Below are positions 4,505-12,607 of a DNA stretch of 41,352 nucleotides, piece by piece. Source of the stretch: Actinomycetes bacterium. Its GTDB lineage: Bacteria; Actinomycetota; Thermoleophilia; BMS3ABIN01. How positions within the stretch are numbered: position 1 is the first letter of the stretch; each line of letters begins with the position of its first letter. The notes under the pieces were generated by a model that did not search any database, was not told the DNA's origin, and worked only from the letters and a program-made list of their open reading frames with translations. The stretch covers positions 1-41,352 of the forward strand of contig JAJYIN010000002.1 of assembly GCA_021790075.1 (NCBI GenBank). Reading direction: 5' to 3'. The translations under genes were made by a program, and so were the position numbers.

Positions 4505-5906
4505 CCCTGTCGCTGCCGCCGCTGCCGGCCATCTCTTCCCGGGGCCGTTCCGGTTCGCCCGCCCCGGACACTTCTTCCCGGGGAGGTTCCAGTTCATCGA
4601 CCCTGGACACTTCTTCCGTGGGCCGTGCCAGTTTCTTGTGGCCGTTCAGCTTGAACAGGCGGCGCATCGATTCCACATAAAGGTAGCCGCCGCGCTCGTT
4701 CGATGCCCGTTTCAGCTCCACCGTGGGACTGTGCAGGATCTTGTTGACGATACCCGACGCCATGGCCTCGATGCGGTTGCGGTCCTCCTCGGAGAGGTCG
4801 CCGTTGAACTTGCTGAGCGCTCTGGCCACCTCCGCCTCCTTGATCTCTTCCACCAGCTGCCGCAGAGCGGTGATGGTCGGCACCACATCCAGGCTGGAAA
4901 GCCACTGGGTGAAATTGAGCACTTCCTCGCCAATAATCTTTTCCGCCTTTTGTGCTTCCTTGCGGCGCGCTACCGCGTTGGCTTCGGCAACCTCGTTGAG
5001 ATCGTCGATGTCGTAGAGGAAGGCGTTGTAAACGTCGTTGACGCCGGGGTCGATATCACGGGGAACCGCGATGTCAATAAAGAAGATCGGCTTGTTGTGG
5101 CGCTGGCGCATGGCCTTTTCCACCTGGCCCTTGCGCAGCACGTAGTGAGGCGCGCCCGTGGAACTGATAACGATGTCCGCCAGGGGCAGGTAATCGGCAA
5201 GATCGTCGAAGCGGATGGCCTGGCCGTTGAACCTGTCCGCCATCTCTTCCGCCCGGCTGAACGTGCGGTTGCCCACCATGATGCTGGAGATGCCGTGCGA
5301 GAGCAGGTGGGTAGCGGTCAGCTCCCCCATCTTGCCGGCGCCCAGCAGCATGACGGTGCGGCCTTCCAGGTTGTCAAACACCTTTTTGGCCATCTCCACG
5401 GCTACCGACGACACCGACACGGGGTTCTCGCCGATGGCGGTTTCGGTGCGCACGCGCTTGCCCACTTCGAGGGAGTGGCGGAAAAGCCGGTTGAGGAGCA
5501 CGCTGGTGGTTTCACGGGCGTGGGCGTCGTGATAGGCCGCCTTGATCTGGCCCAGGATCTGGGCCTCGCCCACCACCAGGGAATCGAGGCTGCCGGCCAC
5601 CTTGTAAAGATGGCGGACGGCGCTCTCACCCTCGTAATAGTAAGAGCTGTCCTCCAGTTCTTCCCGGTCCACGCCGGCGAGGTGCGCCAGGGCAGCGAGC
5701 ACTTCGCGGTTGCCGGTTTCGGGGCGGGAGACAACCACGTAGATTTCGGTGCGGTTGCAGGTGGAAAGGGGAACGGCTTCCAGCACGCCGGCACTGTCCA
5801 GCAGTTTCTGGGAGAGAACCCCGCACTTCTCTCCATCAAGGGAAACCTTTTCCCGCAACTCCACGGGGGCGGTTTTATGATTTATGCCTAATACCGCGAG
5901 ATGCAT
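4497..5906 (-). CDS. hemA: Glutamyl-tRNA reductase with an unusual repetitive acidic C-terminal tail
   Basis: MHLAVLGINHKTAPVELRE, the STCNRTEIY active-site motif and the LLGAGKMGE NADPH site are all present. Confidence 0.92.
   Translation of the reverse strand: MHLAVLGINHKTAPVELREKVSLDGEKCGVLSQKLLDSAGVLEAVPLSTCNRTEIYVVVSRPETGNREVLAALAHLAGVDREELEDSSYYYEGESAVRHLYKVAGSLDSLVVGEAQILGQIKAAYHDAHARETTSVLLNRLFRHSLEVGKRVRTETAIGENPVSVSSVAVEMAKKVFDNLEGRTVMLLGAGKMGELTATHLLSHGISSIMVGNRTFSRAEEMADRFNGQAIRFDDLADYLPLADIVISSTGAPHYVLRKGQVEKAMRQRHNKPIFFIDIAVPRDIDPGVNDVYNAFLYDIDDLNEVAEANAVARRKEAQKAEKIIGEEVLNFTQWLSSLDVVPTITALRQLVEEIKEAEVARALSKFNGDLSEEDRNRIEAMASGIVNKILHSPTVELKRASNERGGYLYVESMRRLFKLNGHKKLARPTEEVSRVDELEPPREEVSGAGEPERPREEMAGSGGSDRDE
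4512..4628 (-). repeat. 3 x 39-bp in-frame tandem repeat encoding the HemA C-terminal tail
   Basis: The protein units are ARPTEEVSRVDEL / EPPREEVSGAGEP / ERPREEMAGSGGS. On the plus strand, CTTCC(C/G)(G/T)GGG recurs at about 4533, 4572 and 4611. Confidence 0.7.
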
Positions 5907-6514
5907 TTGTCGATCTCCGACTGCGCGGCGGCTTCGCCGCCGCTATGTAAAATTGCCGCCAGGTCCAGCTGCGCCAGTTCCGCCAGGCACTGCCGCTTGG
6001 CGTCCTCATCTTTCACCCGGGCTATCACCTGCCGGCGCGCTTCTCCCAGCAGTTCCAGCGCCCGGGCCCACTCCGGAGGAAACTCTTCTTCCAGCTGCCG
6101 GCGCAAACGTTTCGCCAGGGCCGGCAGCCCGCCGCCCGTGGAGACGGTCAGCATCAGATCGCCGCGGCGGACGGAGGCGGGAACATAAAAATTGCATTGC
6201 CCGGGCCGGTCGACCACGTTCAGCAGCAGCCCCCGGTCCTGAGCCTCTGACTCGACTTCCCGGTTGACCGCCTCGTCATCTGTGGCAGCAATGGCCAGAA
6301 AAGCCCCCTCGAGATCTCCCCGCCGGTAGGGCCTGTCCACATAGTCGAAGCGGCCTTGATGCCTTTCGAACTCAGGGTCAAGCACCGGCGACACCACCTT
6401 CACTTCAGCCCCGCATTCGAGCAGCGACTCCGCCTTGCGCAAAGCCACCTTACCGCCGCCGATTACGACGCAGGGGCGGCCTTCCAGCTTGAGATTGACA
6501 GGGTAAAGCGCCAC
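5888..6514 (-). CDS. Precorrin-2 dehydrogenase / sirohydrochlorin ferrochelatase (SirC / CysG N-terminal / Met8-like)
   Basis: It has the Rossmann motif VVIGGGKVALRKAESLLECGAEVKVVSP and is 208 aa long. It sits between resC and hemA. Confidence 0.85.
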   Translation of the reverse strand: MALYPVNLKLEGRPCVVIGGGKVALRKAESLLECGAEVKVVSPVLDPEFERHQGRFDYVDRPYRRGDLEGAFLAIAATDDEAVNREVESEAQDRGLLLNVVDRPGQCNFYVPASVRRGDLMLTVSTGGGLPALAKRLRRQLEEEFPPEWARALELLGEARRQVIARVKDEDAKRQCLAELAQLDLAAILHSGGEAAAQSEIDKCISRY

Positions 6515-6517
6515 ACC

Positions 6518-7576
6518 TTATCCCACCGAGCCGTAACTGTGGAGCCCGGAAAGCAGCAGGTTGACTCCCAGGTAGGTGAATAGCACCACGACCATGCCGA
6601 TCACGGCCAGCACCGCGGAATGGCGGCCCCGCCATCCCCAGGTCAGCCGCGTATGCAGATAGGCGCCGTAGAAAAGCCAGGTGATGAACGACCAGGTTTC
6701 CTTGGGGTCCCAGCTCCACCAGCTGCCCCAGGCCTGGTCGGCCCAGATGGCGCCGGTGACGATACCGATGGTGACCATGGGGAAACCAAAGGCGATGCCG
6801 CGATAGCTGACCTCGTCCAGCACATCAAGTGAAGGCAGCCGCTTGGAAAATGAAGGCTTGGCGGCGCCCCGGCCGGCCAGGTATCCCAGCCCCAGAGCCA
6901 CTGTCAGCCCCAGGAGGCCGCCGGCCCCGATCTTGAGCCAGTCGCTGGTGGCGTAAATCTTGCTGACGGCGCCCGTTACCGGGTCGGCGATCTTGGCCGG
7001 ATTGGCCCAGGTGGAGCCCAGCCACAGCCCCAGCACCAGCCCCAGGAGGCCAAACATGATCAGGAATGCCATCACGACATTTTGATAGTGTTTTTTGAGC
7101 AGATATTCCTGGACGACATAGAAGAAGCCGGCGCCGAAAGACAGCGCAAAAAATCCGTAGGAAAGCATGGCGATGGAGACGTGGATCCAGAGCCAGTAAC
7201 TCTGAAGCGCCGGCACCAGCGGTTCGGGACCCGTGTAAAACACAAAGGCGACGCTGTTGATGATGAACGCCGTGGGCACCACCAGCGCCCCGGCGGCCCG
7301 GATGGGGTAAAACCGCTCGGCGATCAGATAGAAGAGCACGATGCCCCAGCCGAACACCGACAGCGATTCATACAGGTTCGACATGGGCGCGTGGCCCGAG
7401 CTGATCCAGCGCAGGACCAGCGCCACCGTGTGGGCCGTCAGGCCAAAGACCAGCAGGGCCGTGCCCAGCTTCGCGGTCATGGCATTGCGCGTGATCAGGT
7501 GCCAAATGTAAAGGCCGCTGCATACCAGGTACGAAATAACCGCAATAATGAAGAGTATCTCTTCTACCTTAGCCAT
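6518..7576 (-). CDS. ccsA: Cytochrome c biogenesis System II haem-handling protein (CcsA/ResC)
   Basis: It is polytopic, carries the WWD-type motif WGSWWSWDPKETWSFITW, and has conserved His residues. Confidence 0.88.
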   Translation of the reverse strand: MAKVEEILFIIAVISYLVCSGLYIWHLITRNAMTAKLGTALLVFGLTAHTVALVLRWISSGHAPMSNLYESLSVFGWGIVLFYLIAERFYPIRAAGALVVPTAFIINSVAFVFYTGPEPLVPALQSYWLWIHVSIAMLSYGFFALSFGAGFFYVVQEYLLKKHYQNVVMAFLIMFGLLGLVLGLWLGSTWANPAKIADPVTGAVSKIYATSDWLKIGAGGLLGLTVALGLGYLAGRGAAKPSFSKRLPSLDVLDEVSYRGIAFGFPMVTIGIVTGAIWADQAWGSWWSWDPKETWSFITWLFYGAYLHTRLTWGWRGRHSAVLAVIGMVVVLFTYLGVNLLLSGLHSYGSVG

Positions 7577-8720
7577 CTGCTCTTGCCTCCTGTCCCAGTC
7601 TCAACCTGAGTTCGGCAGTAATCCGCTCGAAATCGCGCTTGAATCCCAGCTTGGAGCGGTTGGTCCGCCCTCCCATCAAAAGCTCATCCGACTTGCCGAT
7701 TTTCAGCCAGATACGCCGGTGCGGGAAATACAGCCCGATCGTGATTCCCACCATCATCATCGCAAAACCCAGGTAGATCAGGGTCTTGCCGGGACGCCGG
7801 CTGATCTCGATCACGCTGACGTAACCGCGGCTTGACTGGTAATAACTCGATTGATAAAAATTCGTCCCCTCCACCTTGAGCAGGTCGAGAAAGGAAGACG
7901 TCAACCGCAACGGGCCGTTGACGGTGATCGTCTGCCGGACCACCTGCTGCCCCCCATCCAGGACCTGCAGGTCGGTGGAATAGAGGGATGGCCTGTAACT
8001 GACAATCCGGTTGCCGTCATAAACCGGATCGGATTTCATATTGAACCCGTAGCTCTTGAGCTGGTAATCCGTGTTGGGAACGTTGATGGTGGCGCCGTCC
8101 GGGACGTCGAGACGTTCCTGAAAACCAAAGACCGCGCCACTGATCGCTCCTATACAGATTACCAGAAAACTAAGATGAAACATTAGTGAGGAAAGACCGG
8201 AAAAGCGGCCCTTTTGCGCCAGCACCGAGCCGCTCTCACCTGCATGGAGCCGGTAACGCGAGCCCTTGAGCAGATCCCGGGCGGCCCCCATCCCCTTCTC
8301 GCCGGCCCCCTCGAAACTGGCGGCTTCCGGCTGGTTGGCCACAAAAGCGTCCTTGACGTCTAAACGCAGCTTAAAAGCATGCTTGACCGTGGTGGGAAGG
8401 CGGTTGAGGATGCAGACCGAAAGGTTCGCCATCAGCAGCGTCAGGAGGGACATGAACCACCAGGAAGTGTACATGTTGAAGAGGCCCAGGAAGTTGTAGA
8501 AATTGTACAGCGGGTTCTTGACCCAGTCCGACTGGAGGGCTTCCTCACCTTGGGGAATGATCGTGCCTATGATCGAGAGGATGGCAATGATGAACAGCAG
8601 CGTCAGCGCCAGCTTCATGGAGATGAGGAAATGGAAGATCCTCATCCCTAATGGAGGCGCCGGCTTTGACACCTCGGCTGTCTCGGATATGGCGCTCATT
8701 TCTTTGACGGAATCAGACAT
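7569..8720 (-). CDS. resB: Cytochrome c biogenesis System II protein (ResB/Ccs1/CcsB)
   Basis: The N-terminal FLISMKLALTLLFIIA helix, a large extracytoplasmic domain and a C-terminal TM segment match the family. It overlaps the resC start by 8 nt. Confidence 0.85.
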   Translation of the reverse strand: MSDSVKEMSAISETAEVSKPAPPLGMRIFHFLISMKLALTLLFIIAILSIIGTIIPQGEEALQSDWVKNPLYNFYNFLGLFNMYTSWWFMSLLTLLMANLSVCILNRLPTTVKHAFKLRLDVKDAFVANQPEAASFEGAGEKGMGAARDLLKGSRYRLHAGESGSVLAQKGRFSGLSSLMFHLSFLVICIGAISGAVFGFQERLDVPDGATINVPNTDYQLKSYGFNMKSDPVYDGNRIVSYRPSLYSTDLQVLDGGQQVVRQTITVNGPLRLTSSFLDLLKVEGTNFYQSSYYQSSRGYVSVIEISRRPGKTLIYLGFAMMMVGITIGLYFPHRRIWLKIGKSDELLMGGRTNRSKLGFKRDFERITAELRLRLGQEARADG

Positions 8721-8741
8721 ATGACGTCATGCCAAGCGGGC

Positions 8742-9782
8742 CTAGGGTGCATCACCCTTGATAAAGGCTTTCTTGAAACTGGCAGCCTGTGACGGATCCG
8801 GCTGTGGCAGGGTGTCGGGCAGTTGCCATATTTGGATGCGGTTGTTCATCCGGTCGCAGATATAGAAACGTTTGGTGGAAGTTATTGCTATGCCGTCCGG
8901 AAAATTGACTTGGCCGTTCTGATCGCCCTTCTCCCCAAAAACGGATACCACGTCGCCGTCTTGGGTCAGGACGACAAACTGGTTGTTGAAATTGTCGGAT
9001 ACATAGACATTCCCGTCGGGTCCAAGCGCAATACCTTTCGGCAAACCGAAGGGACTGGTAATGTTGCCGTTGACATCGGGAGAACCCACCATCCAGCGAA
9101 CCTGCCCGCTGGAGTTGAGGGCGACGATGCGCCGGTTGAGTGAATCGGCCACGAAGAAATTGCCGGTATTGGGATCGACAACAATTCCTTCAGCGTAATT
9201 GAACTGGCCCTTATCCTTACCTTGCTTATCCGTGCCCCAGTGGCCTACATACTTGCCGTCGGCGTCAAAGATATATATGCCCGCCCAACTGGTCACATAT
9301 TCCTTGTCTCCGTAAATGGCAATTCCGTAAGGGGCAAACAGCTGACCGGCGGGGAAGTCCTTGGGGTCACGGGGAAGATTGAACTGGAAATCCCCGGCCT
9401 TGTTGAGAACCCGGACACCCCGGAAGTTGTAGTCGCATACGTACACGCGGTCCCGCGAGTCGTCAACGGCGATGTCGGCCATGTTGGCACGGAACTGGAG
9501 TGGATTCCCATCCTGGTCCTTGGTATCCACTTTAAATTGGAAATTGCCATCCTTGTCGTAAACATCAACTTCCGATTTGCCAGTGTTGCTAACATAGATG
9601 TTCTGGTCGACATCGGTGGCTACTCCAAAAGGAGCCAACACACCATAGATGGAAGTAATATAGCTGAAACCCCCGCTGATCGCCTGGGTCTGGGGAGTCT
9701 TGCGGGCAAGCAAAACCGCCACCAGTGCCAGCACGACTACCAGAACCCCCAGGACTATCAGCCTGCCTTTATACTTGCTCAT
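8742..9782 (-). CDS. Membrane-anchored NHL-repeat beta-propeller protein
   Basis: It has an N-terminal TM helix (LIVLGVLVVVLALVAVLLA). Repeated G.A.D..GN.YV.D..N.RV/I blocks (for example IYVSNTGKSEVDVYDKDG, VYVCDYNFRGVRVL, FFVADSLNRRIVAL, VYVSDNFNNQFVVL, FYICDRMNNRIQIW) follow. Confidence 0.85.
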   Translation of the reverse strand: MSKYKGRLIVLGVLVVVLALVAVLLARKTPQTQAISGGFSYITSIYGVLAPFGVATDVDQNIYVSNTGKSEVDVYDKDGNFQFKVDTKDQDGNPLQFRANMADIAVDDSRDRVYVCDYNFRGVRVLNKAGDFQFNLPRDPKDFPAGQLFAPYGIAIYGDKEYVTSWAGIYIFDADGKYVGHWGTDKQGKDKGQFNYAEGIVVDPNTGNFFVADSLNRRIVALNSSGQVRWMVGSPDVNGNITSPFGLPKGIALGPDGNVYVSDNFNNQFVVLTQDGDVVSVFGEKGDQNGQVNFPDGIAITSTKRFYICDRMNNRIQIWQLPDTLPQPDPSQAASFKKAFIKGDAP

Positions 9783-9816
9783 TGTTCAAACCGCCTTGTT
9801 CTTATAGCAAACAAAC

Positions 9817-10419
9817 TCATGTTGATACCCGCTTGATCGCGTTCTGCAGATCCTGGTCGTTGGGGTTGAACTGAGCCGCCGCCTGGTATTCCTTCAGGGC
9901 GCCGGCCTTGTCCCCCTGCTGCTCGAGAATCTGCCCCATCAGGTAATGTGAAGTCCAGGTAATGTCACCGTCAGCAAACGACTTCTGCAGATCGCCCTTG
10001 GCGGCGTCGAGGCTGCCCCGGTTGAATTCCAGCTGCGCCATCTGGTAATAGGCTTCATACTTTTGACCACTGGAATAGGCGTCGGCAGCATGGGAAAACT
10101 GGTCTATGGCATTGTCGAGGTCACCTTTCTTCTCATAGGCCACGCCCATTTTCAGCAGGAGGATGGGCTGATTGGGCGCTTGTGAGAGGGCCGTCTGCAG
10201 TTCGCGGATGGCGTCGTCATACCGGCCGGCGTCCAGATAGGCGGCGCCGAGGTTCGCGCGCAAAGTCGGATCATCGGGTTTATCGTTAACAGCCTTCTCA
10301 AATTTTTCTATGTTGAGCTGGGTAGCTGTAGGAGCCGTGCCCGGCCGCAGGTAAAAGAACAGGGTAACGCCCAAAGCAATGACGGCGGCGGCGATGGCAA
10401 TGTTGATTATCTTGGACAA
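9817..10419 (-). CDS. Membrane-anchored TPR-repeat protein
   Basis: An N-terminal TM helix is followed by about 4 TPR units (LGAAYLDAGRYDDAIRELQTAL, MGVAYEKKGDLDNAIDQF, and others). A TTG start lies 6 nt after GAGGAG. Confidence 0.8.
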   Translation of the reverse strand: MSKIINIAIAAAVIALGVTLFFYLRPGTAPTATQLNIEKFEKAVNDKPDDPTLRANLGAAYLDAGRYDDAIRELQTALSQAPNQPILLLKMGVAYEKKGDLDNAIDQFSHAADAYSSGQKYEAYYQMAQLEFNRGSLDAAKGDLQKSFADGDITWTSHYLMGQILEQQGDKAGALKEYQAAAQFNPNDQDLQNAIKRVST

Positions 10420-10539
10420 GAAGTTCTCCTCAGAAATATCCGAAAAAGAAATGTTATGGGTTAACCGGCGAAGATGTTTGCGCCCCCGCTGTCCTGGCGG
10501 CTAGATTCATTATGCATCAACCTCATGGCGAAACCAAAT

Positions 10540-11079
10540 TTAACGCTCTTGGATCGGGGTTGTAGGGGTATTGGCATTACTGGGCAAGAAAATTCCCTGG
10601 ATTTTCCAGCGCCCTTCCTCCTCCACTAATGCCAGATCCAGTTTCACGTGATCTCCGGCCGGCTTGGAAAGCGCCTGGCCGGTGCTCGAGTCTACGTAAT
10701 AGCTGTTGTCGTCGAATTCCGCCACCACCTGGGCGATGGGGTAATTGTAGTCGTCCAGCCGCACCTGCAGGTTCTGGTAGTCACGCTTCTTGTATTTCCC
10801 CGCCGCCAGGTCCTGATTGATGGTGTTGGTGGCATCCTGAAGCGCGGTTCCCTTCATGGCCTGGGACAGAACGCTGGTGTCCTTGCCGGCGCTGGCAATC
10901 AGGTTCAGGTCGGCGGTAGCGTCGGCCACGACCTGGTCCTTGACCTGCTGGGATGGATCGTGCGCCGATGTCGCCGTGGTATCGACGGTATCGGGCTGGG
11001 TGCCTGAACCCCCGGAACCACACGATATAGCAACGAGAGCCAGAACGAGAACCAGAGGAACTGCTATAAACCGCATCAA
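10540..11079 (-). CDS. Lipoprotein of unknown function
   Basis: The signal peptide has a lipobox (LALVAISC-GSGGSG). The mature domain of about 155 aa ends in an NTF2/Tim44-like strand pattern (HVKLDLALVEEEGRWKIQG). Confidence 0.65.
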   Translation of the reverse strand: MMRFIAVPLVLVLALVAISCGSGGSGTQPDTVDTTATSAHDPSQQVKDQVVADATADLNLIASAGKDTSVLSQAMKGTALQDATNTINQDLAAGKYKKRDYQNLQVRLDDYNYPIAQVVAEFDDNSYYVDSSTGQALSKPAGDHVKLDLALVEEEGRWKIQGIFLPSNANTPTTPIQER

Positions 11080-11111: not shown

Positions 11112-11138
11112 GGGGAGGCACCTCAAGGGTGCCTCCCC
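11112..11138 (-). terminator. Perfect 11-bp GC-rich hairpin 30 nt after the hexahaem cytochrome stop (I-shaped terminator or mRNA-stabilising stem)
   Basis: The sequence is GGGGAGGCACC-TCAAG-GGTGCCTCCCC. No U-tract follows on the minus strand, so its function as a terminator is uncertain. Confidence 0.5.
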
Positions 11139-11167
11139 ATATTCTACCTTCTACCAACCGGCCCGGA

Positions 11168-12280
11168 TTAGGGCAGTGAACCCTTGCTATGGCATCCAAT
11201 GCAGATGCCGTCACCATTGCTGGTGAGCAGATACGGGTTCGAACTCGTGTGCGGGAAGTCCAGAGAAGTCGGATCGTTACTCGGATTTCCGTGGCACGAA
11301 GCGCAGAACGGCGGGTGGTTCTGGTGAACCACGCCTGATGCATCCGCGGTCTTGTTGAGCACCTTCTGGTCGTGGCAGGCTTCGCAGAACCCTTCGAACG
11401 TCGTCACCGGCGTCGTCGTGTGGTTCGGCCGCGCGGACAGCAGGAAGTACGACTGCACTTTGGCGAACGCAGTCGTATTGATGAACTGCTGACCCCACGC
11501 GTTGTCCGGGATGTTGTCCGGACCCGCCGCGCCGGTCGCGTTGTTGACGGTGTCAGTGCCGTCGACAGAACCATGAGGTGTGTGGCAAGAAGCGCAGTAG
11601 AGGCCCTTGGTGCCATTGTAGGTAGTCGCGTTGCCGTTATTGTAACGAGGCATGCCGTTAGAGCCGGCCGCGTAGGCGCCGGGGAACTGGCCCGTGCCCA
11701 GGCCGCTGGCCATCACCACCAGCGGGTTGGTGCCGCTGGGGATGGCGTCAGTGACCCTCACCAGCGTGCCGTCGAGCATGACGCCCAGGCTGTGGCCTGG
11801 AATCGCGTCGATACTGGTGGTATTACCACTGATCGGCGCGCTCCGCATGTTCTTCTGGTAGGCGGCATAGGACGAGACCGTCGGCAGCTGCGGCTGGTTC
11901 GGGCTGTTGGGCTCGCCGTACGTGCCCGTCGGGCCCAGGATCGACTGGGTCAGATCAGGCGGCGCATCGGTCCAGCCGAAACGCATGGTGTTGGGAGCCG
12001 CCGGATTCTCCGGAATCGGCGCCTGATCGCCGAACAGGCCGTGGCAGGTACCGCAAGTACCGGTGACCGTAGCCTCGCGCGTCAACACGTAATCACCCTG
12101 TGCGTCGTGAGGCTCGTGACACTGCAGACACGTGTTGGTCGAAGAACTGTAACCACCGTGAGGGCTAATGTCGCCAGCGACGAGGGGACCGGCTGCGGTT
12201 TCGGCCATGGCTGAAGAGGCGAAAGCCAAGATCAGCACGACAGGGAGAGCAACCGCGACTATAAGCGCTATCCTTTTCAT
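11168..12280 (-). CDS. Secreted hexahaem c-type cytochrome with OmcS-like motif layout
   Basis: Six CxxCH motifs are present (CLQCH, CGTCH, CASCH, CEACH, CASCH, CIGCH). The Sec signal is MKRIALIVAVALPVVLILAFASSAMA|E. I chose the start at the ATG at 12280, 11 nt after AGGAGG; the track ORF extends to 12337 without an SD. Confidence 0.9.
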   Translation of the reverse strand: MKRIALIVAVALPVVLILAFASSAMAETAAGPLVAGDISPHGGYSSSTNTCLQCHEPHDAQGDYVLTREATVTGTCGTCHGLFGDQAPIPENPAAPNTMRFGWTDAPPDLTQSILGPTGTYGEPNSPNQPQLPTVSSYAAYQKNMRSAPISGNTTSIDAIPGHSLGVMLDGTLVRVTDAIPSGTNPLVVMASGLGTGQFPGAYAAGSNGMPRYNNGNATTYNGTKGLYCASCHTPHGSVDGTDTVNNATGAAGPDNIPDNAWGQQFINTTAFAKVQSYFLLSARPNHTTTPVTTFEGFCEACHDQKVLNKTADASGVVHQNHPPFCASCHGNPSNDPTSLDFPHTSSNPYLLTSNGDGICIGCHSKGSLP

Positions 12281-12312
12281 ATATGTAGACACCTCCTTTC
12301 GCCTTGGAATAA

Positions 12313-12350
12313 TTGTCATCTTTGTGAATAACATCACAAATAAATGACAA
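12313..12350. promoter_or_regulatory. CRP/FNR-family-type operator: a perfect TGTGA-N6-TCACA inside a 38-bp imperfect palindrome
   Basis: TGTGA lies at 12323-12327 and TCACA at 12334-12338. They are flanked by TTGTCAT (12313-12319) and ATGACAA (12344-12350). The site sits 43-58 nt upstream of the cytochrome start codon. Confidence 0.5.
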
Positions 12351-12578: not shown

Positions 12579-12607
12579 AAGATACAGGCTGATCAGGATT
12601 TTGTCAA
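12579..12607 (-). promoter_or_regulatory. Candidate sigma-70-type promoter for the cytochrome / accessory / resBC operon
   Basis: On the minus strand, TTGACA (12607-12602) is followed by a 17-nt spacer and TATCTT (12584-12579). This would give a leader of about 290 nt. Confidence 0.45.

Follow-up and report, generated by a model that had tools for sequence, protein, structure and literature searches.

A lipoprotein, a TPR protein and an NHL β-propeller form a gene module with a secreted six-haem cytochrome in uncultured Actinomycetota

The stretch of DNA analysed here, called the window below, comprises 41,352 nucleotides and represents contig 39 of the genome of an Actinomycetes bacterium (GTDB lineage Bacteria; Actinomycetota; Thermoleophilia; BMS3ABIN01; GenBank assembly GCA_021790075.1, contig JAJYIN010000002.1), which amounts to 1.97 Mb in 233 contigs and is 88% complete (G000 among our genome handles; loci are given as L). 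One long co-directional run of minus-strand genes, from ahbA/ahbB through hemA, carries the gene for a six-haem c-type cytochrome (Cyt6) and, after it, genes for a lipoprotein (Lipo), a tetratricopeptide repeat (TPR) protein and an NHL-repeat β-propeller protein. The first-pass annotation of this DNA had placed the three latter genes in one direction between Cyt6 and resB/ccsA, where all three open reading frames were indeed found (Table 1). The resB and ccsA genes are the System II haem-attachment genes (resBC); they are neighbours of the module here and not members of it. Among the genomes compared, the genes of the module are kept, lost, moved and horizontally replaced together.

Neither a catalytic family above cut-off in Pfam nor a curated NCBIfam family was identified for Lipo, the TPR protein or the NHL protein, consistent with their earlier description as proteins devoid of catalytic motifs. 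A scan of the three sequences for the haem motif CXXCH was also negative, and their counts of Cys and His are low (0/2 in the TPR protein, 2/1 in the NHL protein and 1/2 in Lipo).

Lipo has 179 residues if translated from the TTG at 11079, and the 178-residue form starting at the ATG at 11076 is on record. Its signal peptide and lipobox (...LALVAIS-C-GSG) identify it by sequence as a predicted lipoprotein; the Cys-Gly pair of the lipobox is kept in 19 of the 20 homologues aligned, and position -3 of the window protein is occupied by Ala rather than Leu, Val or Ile. A disordered tether of ~25 residues, ending with an invariant His (H40), connects the lipobox Cys with a globular domain. The AlphaFold2 model (mean predicted local distance difference test, pLDDT, of 83, and at least 95 over residues 44-165) predicts for residues ~44-165 an α+β cone of the NTF2/Tim44-C/ARC6-IMS-like type, with Foldseek matches to Tim44-C, the IMS domains of PARC6/ARC6 and the VirB8-like TraH/PrgL proteins of Gram-positive conjugation (probability 1.0, E 1e-5 to 1e-3, TM score 0.5-0.7). 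The Pfam ARC6-like_IMS match falls just short of its cut-off (21.2 versus 22.8 bits). Tim44-C and the IMS domains of ARC6/PARC6 act at membrane surfaces, and the pocket of ARC6/PARC6 holds the C-terminal peptide of a partner. Lipo resembles these proteins and TraH/PrgL in the predicted fold of its globular domain, but shares only 11-18% identity with them, and its lipid anchor and cytochrome context are new. The fold, as modelled, is that of a membrane-proximal protein-binding module. The Lipo family is small, with 11 clusters in a large protein collection, all of them nameless.

The TPR protein consists of one N-terminal membrane helix (residues 4-22) followed by TPR repeats at ~35-195, detected by TPR_2 (E 6e-20, 70 bits, cut-off 27), TPR_16 (68 bits) and many further TPR models of Pfam. 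A GAGGAG ribosome-binding site lies 6-7 nt 5' of its TTG start. Searches against PDB and NCBIfam returned only generic TPR matches, the best in PDB being designed consensus TPRs, OGT and MamA. In each of the 17 related loci described below, an orthologue with 36-47% identity is encoded immediately before the NHL gene.

The NHL protein, which is the sole NHL-repeat protein in the genome, is likewise built of one N-terminal membrane helix (residues 8-26) and a propeller at ~45-322, and ends with a conserved tail, WQL-x-D-x-LP-x-P...KF. Pfam PF01436 matches it in three stretches (E 1e-19, 69.9 bits versus a cut-off of 20), and its NHL domain aligns over most of its length with solved six-bladed NHL domains, namely Thin (6d69, E 3e-35), TRIM71 and Brat. 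Each of the 18 orthologues of either protein retains its hydrophobic helix, and the flanking charges show a mild bias to an N-in, C-out orientation for both the TPR and the NHL protein. The annotation's portrait of a lipobox lipoprotein, a helix-anchored TPR protein and a helix-anchored propeller of the six-blade type is thus borne out by the conserved Cys-Gly pair, the conserved helices and the alignment.

The likely start of Cyt6 is the ATG at 12277 (MKRIAL...), followed by a cleavable Sec signal peptide that ends in AMA. The protein has no membrane anchor of its own, and its C-terminus is conserved (...G-x-L-P). Altogether, the window's genome encodes four multihaem cytochromes. The other three all possess an N-terminal membrane helix, which makes Cyt6 the only unanchored multihaem cytochrome of this genome; two of the three pass the Pfam NapC/NirT cut-off and the third falls just under it. 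These NapC/NirT-like cytochromes could be quinol dehydrogenases that feed Cyt6.

The annotation had called the cytochrome OmcS-like. A profile of the Cyt6 family (47 members) searched against 177,635 PDB sequences gave OmcS (6EF8, E 6.9e-8) as its best match and OmcE (7TFS, E 2.6e-5) as the second, and the alignment of Cyt6 with OmcS is collinear at haem motifs 1, 3 and 4 and in the C-terminal part. None of 500 shuffles of OmcS in which all Cys and His were fixed reached the real score of 33.3 bits (mean -1.7, standard deviation 7.2, maximum 24.4). However, 27 of 84 other multihaem cytochromes from the examined loci score as high as OmcS or higher with the same profile. The two controls together indicate that the likeness is real, but at the level of the doubled-CXXCH superfamily; a specific remote homology to OmcS was therefore dropped, and the name holds at superfamily level only. 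A single-sequence search of PDB with Cyt6 yielded no match, and an AlphaFold2 model built on the 47-sequence alignment was unusable (pLDDT 46).

Residues ~105-300 of the window's Cyt6 (window 11500-11900) form a long insertion rich in Asn, Thr, Ser, Gly and Pro, with many N-x-S/T sequons. Glycosylation is known for some nanowire cytochromes, and Cyt6 may be glycosylated too, judging from these sequons and from the GT-C glycosyltransferase gene upstream.

In most genera the genes for Lipo and the TPR protein are separated by that for a second secreted multihaem cytochrome of ~280 codons, CytB, with five CXXCH motifs, a possible CX3CH and an N-terminal PHGG motif as in Cyt6 (L012:7446-8294 and the equivalent place in 13 other loci, versus window 10420-10539). 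The window and genus g4 are without CytB at this place, and a search of the rest of the window's genome did not find it. Cyt6 is longer where CytB is missing: 389 residues in the window and ~515 in g4 versus ~280-345 in relatives.

To place the module in context, we searched for the NHL protein in 40 related genomes, 23 from the same family and 17 from six other families of the class, all of them metagenome-assembled genomes (MAGs) labelled Thermoleophilia, Actinomycetes or Actinomycetota from groundwater, deep-mine and similar sites. Full-length orthologues (39-52% identity) were present in 17 of the 23 genomes of the family and in none of the 17 from the six other sampled families. When ~19 kb around each orthologue was cut out and all window proteins were mapped onto it, the order Cyt6, Lipo, (CytB), TPR, NHL was recovered in 17 of 17 loci; an order that is the same in all 17 related NHL-bearing genomes argues that the arrangement is not a matter of chance. 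Counting the window's own genome, Cyt6 and the NHL orthologue occur together in 18 of 41 genomes, always adjacent, the NHL orthologue alone in none, Cyt6 alone in two and neither in 21. Of the two Cyt6-only genomes, G015 has a contig that ends just past Lipo, and G016 (75% complete) has Cyt6 near a contig start. Co-conservation with the cytochrome, which the annotation had put forward as a check of its proposal, is therefore evident.

The bond with resBC is of another kind. In genus g4 (three genomes) and in G020 the module does not stand beside resBC, and in G004 ahbAB sits between NHL and resB. In G001 and G021 (90-92% complete), ahbAB is directly followed by resB-ccsA-sirC-hemA with no module, and neither genome contains an orthologue of Cyt6, Lipo, the TPR protein or the NHL protein anywhere; in G021, the site that holds the module in congeners is contiguous and module-free. 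A paired-CXXCH cytochrome is still present in G019 and G021, and ResBC hence has clients without the trio. G019 had itself been considered module-free, but its contig breaks off within a Cyt6-like gene where its congeners have the module, and its status was set to unknown. Since resBC is kept without the trio and the trio is kept without resBC, the trio is not a generic partner of resBC, the possibility that the annotation had named as fatal to its proposal. Neither co-inheritance with resBC nor a thiol-redox or haem motif, as expected of a System II maturation set, was found for the trio.

Two genomes, G020 and G022, retain a deletion scar at the resBC locus, which reads methyltransferase, Lipo fragment, CytB fragment, NHL fragment, resB. 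The scar contains Lipo residues 99-159 (with stop codons), the first 35 codons of CytB and the last 37 codons of NHL. One deletion took Cyt6, TPR and most of the remaining module and left the flanks intact. The glycosyltransferase and methyltransferase genes outlived the module at this locus, which argues that the two can be separated from it.

On a different contig, G020 carries a complete module, located behind a PAS histidine kinase. The encoded proteins are 85-95% identical to those of G008, a member of another genus, versus ~48% to those of its own genus. The DNA of the two is 86-95% identical from inside Cyt6 to the end of NHL, with unrelated flanks, although, with the comparison contig ending just past NHL, the similarity has a strictly defined boundary at its 5' end only. 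This points to a recent horizontal transfer of the whole module, or possibly to a mis-binned contig. As its context in G020 differs from that in G008, the module occupies two different neighbourhoods.

Outside the family, homologues of Cyt6 (29-34% identity) were found near full-length orthologous NHL proteins (30-38% identity) that share the distinctive C-terminal tail of the window's NHL protein. None of these loci has resBC, and most have the TPR gene directly upstream of NHL; TPR genes upstream of NHL were seen in L020, L022, L039, L040, L059, L060, L063 and L141. Orthologous NHL genes with multihaem cytochromes and without resBC were recorded in genus g4 and in at least seven lineages farther away (L020, L022, L037, L039, L040, L059, L060, L062 and L141), six of which showed a TPR gene adjacent to NHL; for the high-G+C loci L059, L060, L062 and L040 the assignments are from tblastn and CXXCH counts. 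A protein with SurA_N and a weak Rotamase_2 match is confined to the sister-lineage clusters L022 and L141.

A scan of metagenome contigs with the NHL alignment, made irrespective of cytochromes, gave nine orthologue-grade matches (E at most 8e-48), well apart from generic NHL proteins (E at least 5e-29). Multihaem cytochromes were present in all seven orthologue loci with at least 5 kb upstream, the other two being cut off upstream, and resBC was seen in family-type loci only. Among 25 generic NHL loci of at least 8 kb, which are not independent of one another, six have multihaem cytochromes, and all six are among the eight best-scoring, which hints at a deeper cytochrome-associated NHL clade. 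One further candidate, P0166 (L142), was rejected as an orthologue: it is of the generic NHL type, and no cytochromes accompany it. The most widely conserved core of the module is the TPR-NHL pair, which always stands beside multihaem cytochromes.

In L141 (1-8684) and L022 (1-5582), the genes form a co-directional, overlapping, operon-like run that looks like a complete quinol-to-multihaem pathway plus TPR-NHL. A Tat-type molybdopterin oxidoreductase, its FeS subunits and a NarJ-like chaperone are encoded immediately downstream of the Cyt6 homologue in L020 (8001-16645) and L037 (9980-15065). The Cyt6 family of some lineages may thus serve an extracytoplasmic molybdoenzyme rather than an external acceptor.

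A conserved non-coding element was identified between Cyt6 and Lipo, directly after the Cyt6 stop codon. It starts with an invariant motif of 23 nt, GGGCCGGTTGGTAGAAGGTAGAA (11164-11142), followed by a G+C-rich hairpin (11138-11112) of 12 bp in the consensus and 11 bp in the window. Seven of the 12 hairpin pairs show compensatory changes among 12 loci, where the flanking proteins are only ~40% identical. No Rfam family corresponds to the motif and hairpin. The element is a candidate attenuator or mRNA-stabilising 3' structure, by which Cyt6 may be expressed above the accessory genes; a stable hairpin that separates the gene of the main structural protein from the accessory genes is what one would expect if the cytochrome is made in excess over its helpers. 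An 18-nt core of the motif recurs at one to three further non-coding sites per genome, where one class of copies has a conserved ...CTTGGGGAGGCTGAAGGTCAACAGCC after it and copies of another class follow a ComEA-like gene. The core is missing from the module-free genomes of the family, except G022, which has only the scar and carries two copies elsewhere, and from three of the four module-bearing genomes of genus g4, G009 being the one that keeps it. The motif may be a shared protein- or RNA-binding site. Upstream of Cyt6, a promoter-like site in a low-G+C spacer is possibly the module's own promoter, though such sites are no more numerous in the region than in shuffled sequence.

Table 1 Positions of the genes and elements discussed, in the window and in the loci compared with it
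Feature	Position	Strand	Remarks
ahbA, ahbB	start of minus-strand run	minus	
Small dihaem cytochrome gene	after ahbAB, before glycosyltransferase gene	minus	
GT-C (PMT_2) glycosyltransferase and methyltransferase genes	just upstream of Cyt6 spacer	minus	
Promoter-like site TTGACA-17-TATCTT	12579..12607	minus	consensus match, in low-G+C spacer upstream of Cyt6
Low-G+C spacer, ~590 nt	between methyltransferase gene and Cyt6	minus	
Cyt6, six-haem c-type cytochrome	11168..12337	minus	six CXXCH
Conserved non-coding element	11112..11164	minus	between Cyt6 and Lipo genes
Lipoprotein (Lipo), 179 aa	10540..11079	minus	open reading frame
TPR protein, 200 aa	9817..10419	minus	open reading frame, Pfam
NHL β-propeller protein, 346 aa	8742..9782	minus	open reading frame, Pfam
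resB	7569..8720	minus	Pfam ResB E 2e-74
ccsA/resC	6518..7576	minus	Pfam Cytochrom_C_asm E 3e-54
Precorrin-2 dehydrogenase and hemA genes	after ccsA in minus-strand run	minus	
Other multihaem cytochromes, G000	C154:3035-4039; C154:9192-10004; C169:585-1748		12, 7 and 7 CXXCH
Further motif copies, second class	G000:C106:25396-25415 (L136); L137; L139		
Further motif copies, third class	L138; L140		
Deletion scar	L051 (G022:C106) 9757-10395; L052 (G020:C3) 6743-7303		
Shared module stretch	L004 (G020:C23) 5368-9887; L006 (G008:C31) 5873-10185		
L020, MAG labelled Clostridiales			two cytochromes, NarJ-like protein, molybdopterin oxidoreductase, FeS proteins, TPR, NHL
L022, marine actinobacterium			cytochromes, SurA-like protein, TPR, NHL, Rieske, cytochrome b
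L037, L039, L040, other lineages			Cyt6 homologue and orthologous NHL; TPR in L039 and L040, Lipo homologue in L037
L141 run			fragment (probably Rieske), cytochrome b, cytochrome b-C/c, several multihaem cytochromes, SurA_N/PPIase-like, TPR, NHL

From these data we consider it somewhat probable that the trio constitutes a dedicated device for the handling or retention of the secreted Cyt6. The annotation had suggested that the three proteins form a scaffold for the cytochrome at the cell envelope, and a tethering, positioning or assembly role is also what we infer. The host cell is presumably monoderm, as expected from its phylum. Cyt6 would be exported by Sec and receive its haems from ResBC, after which a platform of the TPR and NHL proteins at the outer face of the cytoplasmic membrane would capture, fold or hold the soluble protein. 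Lipo would serve as an adaptor, its NTF2-type pocket binding a terminal peptide or a surface of Cyt6, and in other lineages a SurA/PrsA-like foldase would take its place. The hairpin after the Cyt6 gene would keep the accessory proteins substoichiometric. In this way, a cell without an outer membrane might have in the module its own version of the β-propeller, TPR and chaperone genes found with OmcS and OmcE in Geobacter and related bacteria.

Several points weigh against such a device. Physical interaction, surface location and an effect on the cytochrome are what we infer rather than observe, the topology of the TPR and NHL proteins comes from a weak charge bias in their sequences, and genomes of one family are non-independent observations. 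Lipo is restricted to the window's family and L037, other lineages having a SurA/PrsA-like foldase instead, so that the trio is not one invariant set. Finally, the company of the module elsewhere, with the Cyt6 homologue by a molybdopterin oxidoreductase in L020 and L037 and the module in an operon with Rieske and cytochrome b genes in L022 and L141, suggests that TPR-NHL may belong to a redox complex rather than to a device for surface display.

The last point leads to an alternative that we regard as unlikely, namely that a quinol-oxidising or multihaem supercomplex, fed by NapC-type or Rieske/cytochrome b components, contains the TPR and NHL proteins as structural subunits, which would stabilise it much as accessory subunits stabilise respiratory complexes, with neither surface display nor polymerisation. 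The single overlapping run of L022 and L141, which encodes Rieske and cytochrome b proteins together with three multihaem cytochromes, a SurA-like protein and TPR-NHL, agrees with it, as does the place of the Cyt6 homologue next to a molybdopterin oxidoreductase with FeS subunits in L020 and L037, and the NapC/NirT-type membrane cytochromes of the window's genome could feed Cyt6. However, the module of the window's family includes no quinol-oxidising or membrane redox subunit, and Cyt6, with its cleavable signal peptide, is unanchored. From lineage to lineage the redox partners vary and TPR-NHL remains constant, which fits a generic handling device better than a fixed enzyme subunit.

Client-specific maturation chaperones present a further alternative, in which the TPR protein binds the unfolded apocytochrome and passes it to ResBC for the six successive haem attachments, assisted by the NHL protein and Lipo, all before the holocytochrome stage. 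CcmI/CycH and NrfG are TPR apocytochrome chaperones of System I, NrfG being client-specific and encoded in a cytochrome operon, and the module's TPR protein resembles them in having a membrane-anchored TPR domain that is predicted to face the haem-attachment side. It has a weak match to Pfam PF23914, TPR_CcmH_CycH (E 1.6e-4; E at most 1e-5 for the L020 orthologue); moreover, the NHL gene of the window stops 21 bp before resB, most of the family has the module next to resBC, and L022 and L141 encode a SurA/PrsA-like foldase beside it. Yet the score of 22.0 bits is far under the cut-off of 42, the similarities of the TPR protein are of the generic sort, and the host employs System II, with a TPR gene that travels with the cytochrome and NHL, unlike CcmI/CycH, rather than with haem-attachment genes. 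Genus g4, G020 and those distant lineages whose flanks are long enough to tell have the module far away from resBC, and module-free G021 retains both resBC and the paired-CXXCH cytochrome, as does G019 (module status unknown). On these grounds we judge maturation chaperones improbable.

To a stronger version of the handling device we give little credence when it is taken as a joint claim: that Cyt6 polymerises into an OmcS-type surface haem wire, with TPR-NHL and Lipo (or the foldase) as the monoderm equivalent of the Geobacter nanowire biogenesis machinery, CytB as a base or tip subunit and Lipo as the anchor of the filament end. In OmcS and OmcE, neighbouring subunits donate a His to a haem; by analogy, Lipo would possibly donate its invariant tether His, H40, to an open haem. 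The last alternative, that these are generic envelope proteins and chance neighbours of the cytochrome and resBC, can appeal to TPR, NHL and NTF2-like folds being widespread interaction modules with no diagnostic motif and to the 19 of 25 generic NHL loci without a nearby cytochrome, but is scarcely credible, as the orthologues are missing where Cyt6 is missing, are deleted and transferred together with it, and recur with multihaem cytochromes in unrelated genomic contexts.

The dedicated device for cytochrome handling finds its closest parallels in Gram-negative bacteria. The statement in the annotation that NHL and TPR genes accompany omcS and omcE in Geobacter agrees with published clusters. 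GSU2505, an NHL-repeat gene beside omcS, has been suggested to be necessary for OmcS assembly or expression (PMC9070056). For the osc (omcS-companion) operon of Geobacter sulfurreducens, a role has been proposed in folding for OscH, a prolyl-isomerase chaperone, in secretion for the channel-like OscE/F/G and in the control of filament morphology for OscD (PMC13194489, citing Shen et al. 2025, Cell Chem Biol). The module is similar in having non-redox accessory genes, a β-propeller gene included, after a multihaem cytochrome gene, in glycosyltransferase and methyltransferase genes nearby and in the SurA/peptidyl-prolyl isomerase (PPIase)-like foldase of L022 and L141, which sits at the place of OscH; the best solved relative of the Cyt6 family is OmcS, at superfamily level. 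OscD is reportedly β-propeller-like.

There are also differences from osc. Pfam reveals no PPIase/SurA-like domain, as in OscH, in the three window proteins, and the stretch from the cytochrome gene to resB contains no porin or channel gene, as for OscE/F/G, either in the window or in the 17 related loci. A porin is not expected in a cell without an outer membrane. The propeller and the TPR protein of the module have one membrane helix each as an anchor, in place of a lipid or a periplasmic location, and the NTF2-like Lipo is without a counterpart among the described osc proteins. The NHL protein is likened to GSU2505 and OscD by type of fold, not by sequence, and filaments are known for OmcS whereas Cyt6 is known from genes alone. 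With the porin and PPIase features lacking, the module was not filed as a member of osc.

The OmcE clusters of Desulfuromonadia are inserted beside resB/ccsB, always hold two further multihaem cytochromes, two β-propeller lipoproteins and a large β-barrel, and often then carry GT39-type glycosyltransferases, methyltransferases and TPR proteins as a glycosylation extension (PMC13712944). The module shares with them its place beside resB, a β-propeller and the GT-C/PMT_2 glycosyltransferase and methyltransferase genes just upstream, but belongs to an Actinomycetota lineage, has an NHL propeller anchored by a helix instead of a lipid, and includes the TPR gene in its core, not in a glycosylation extension. 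In Desulfovibrio ferrophilus, NHL propellers are co-expressed with outer-membrane multihaem cytochromes and have been proposed to stabilise the cytochrome complex by protein-protein contacts (PMC5815863). In contrast to the module, those are complexes of a Gram-negative outer membrane, with far larger cytochromes and without a TPR or lipoprotein partner.

A full-text literature search combining NHL repeats, multihaem cytochromes and Gram-positive bacteria gave three papers, all concerned, by title and abstract, with Gram-negative organisms. To our knowledge, no comparable cytochrome-handling set has been described for bacteria without an outer membrane. The module repeats a known propeller/TPR theme; what is new is the lack of any outer-membrane part, the anchoring of both propeller and TPR protein by helices and the NTF2-like lipoprotein.

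How extracellular multihaem cytochromes are folded, retained and sometimes polymerised is a live question even in Geobacter. The module described here is a compact set of four or five genes with boundaries drawn by natural deletion and natural transfer, and its small size makes it a practical test system for heterologous expression. It couples a secreted cytochrome of the OmcS superfamily to three anchored interaction proteins in uncultured subsurface Actinomycetota. The propeller-plus-TPR theme is found by multihaem cytochromes in Geobacter and in Actinomycetota alike, which points to a general way of handling such cargoes.

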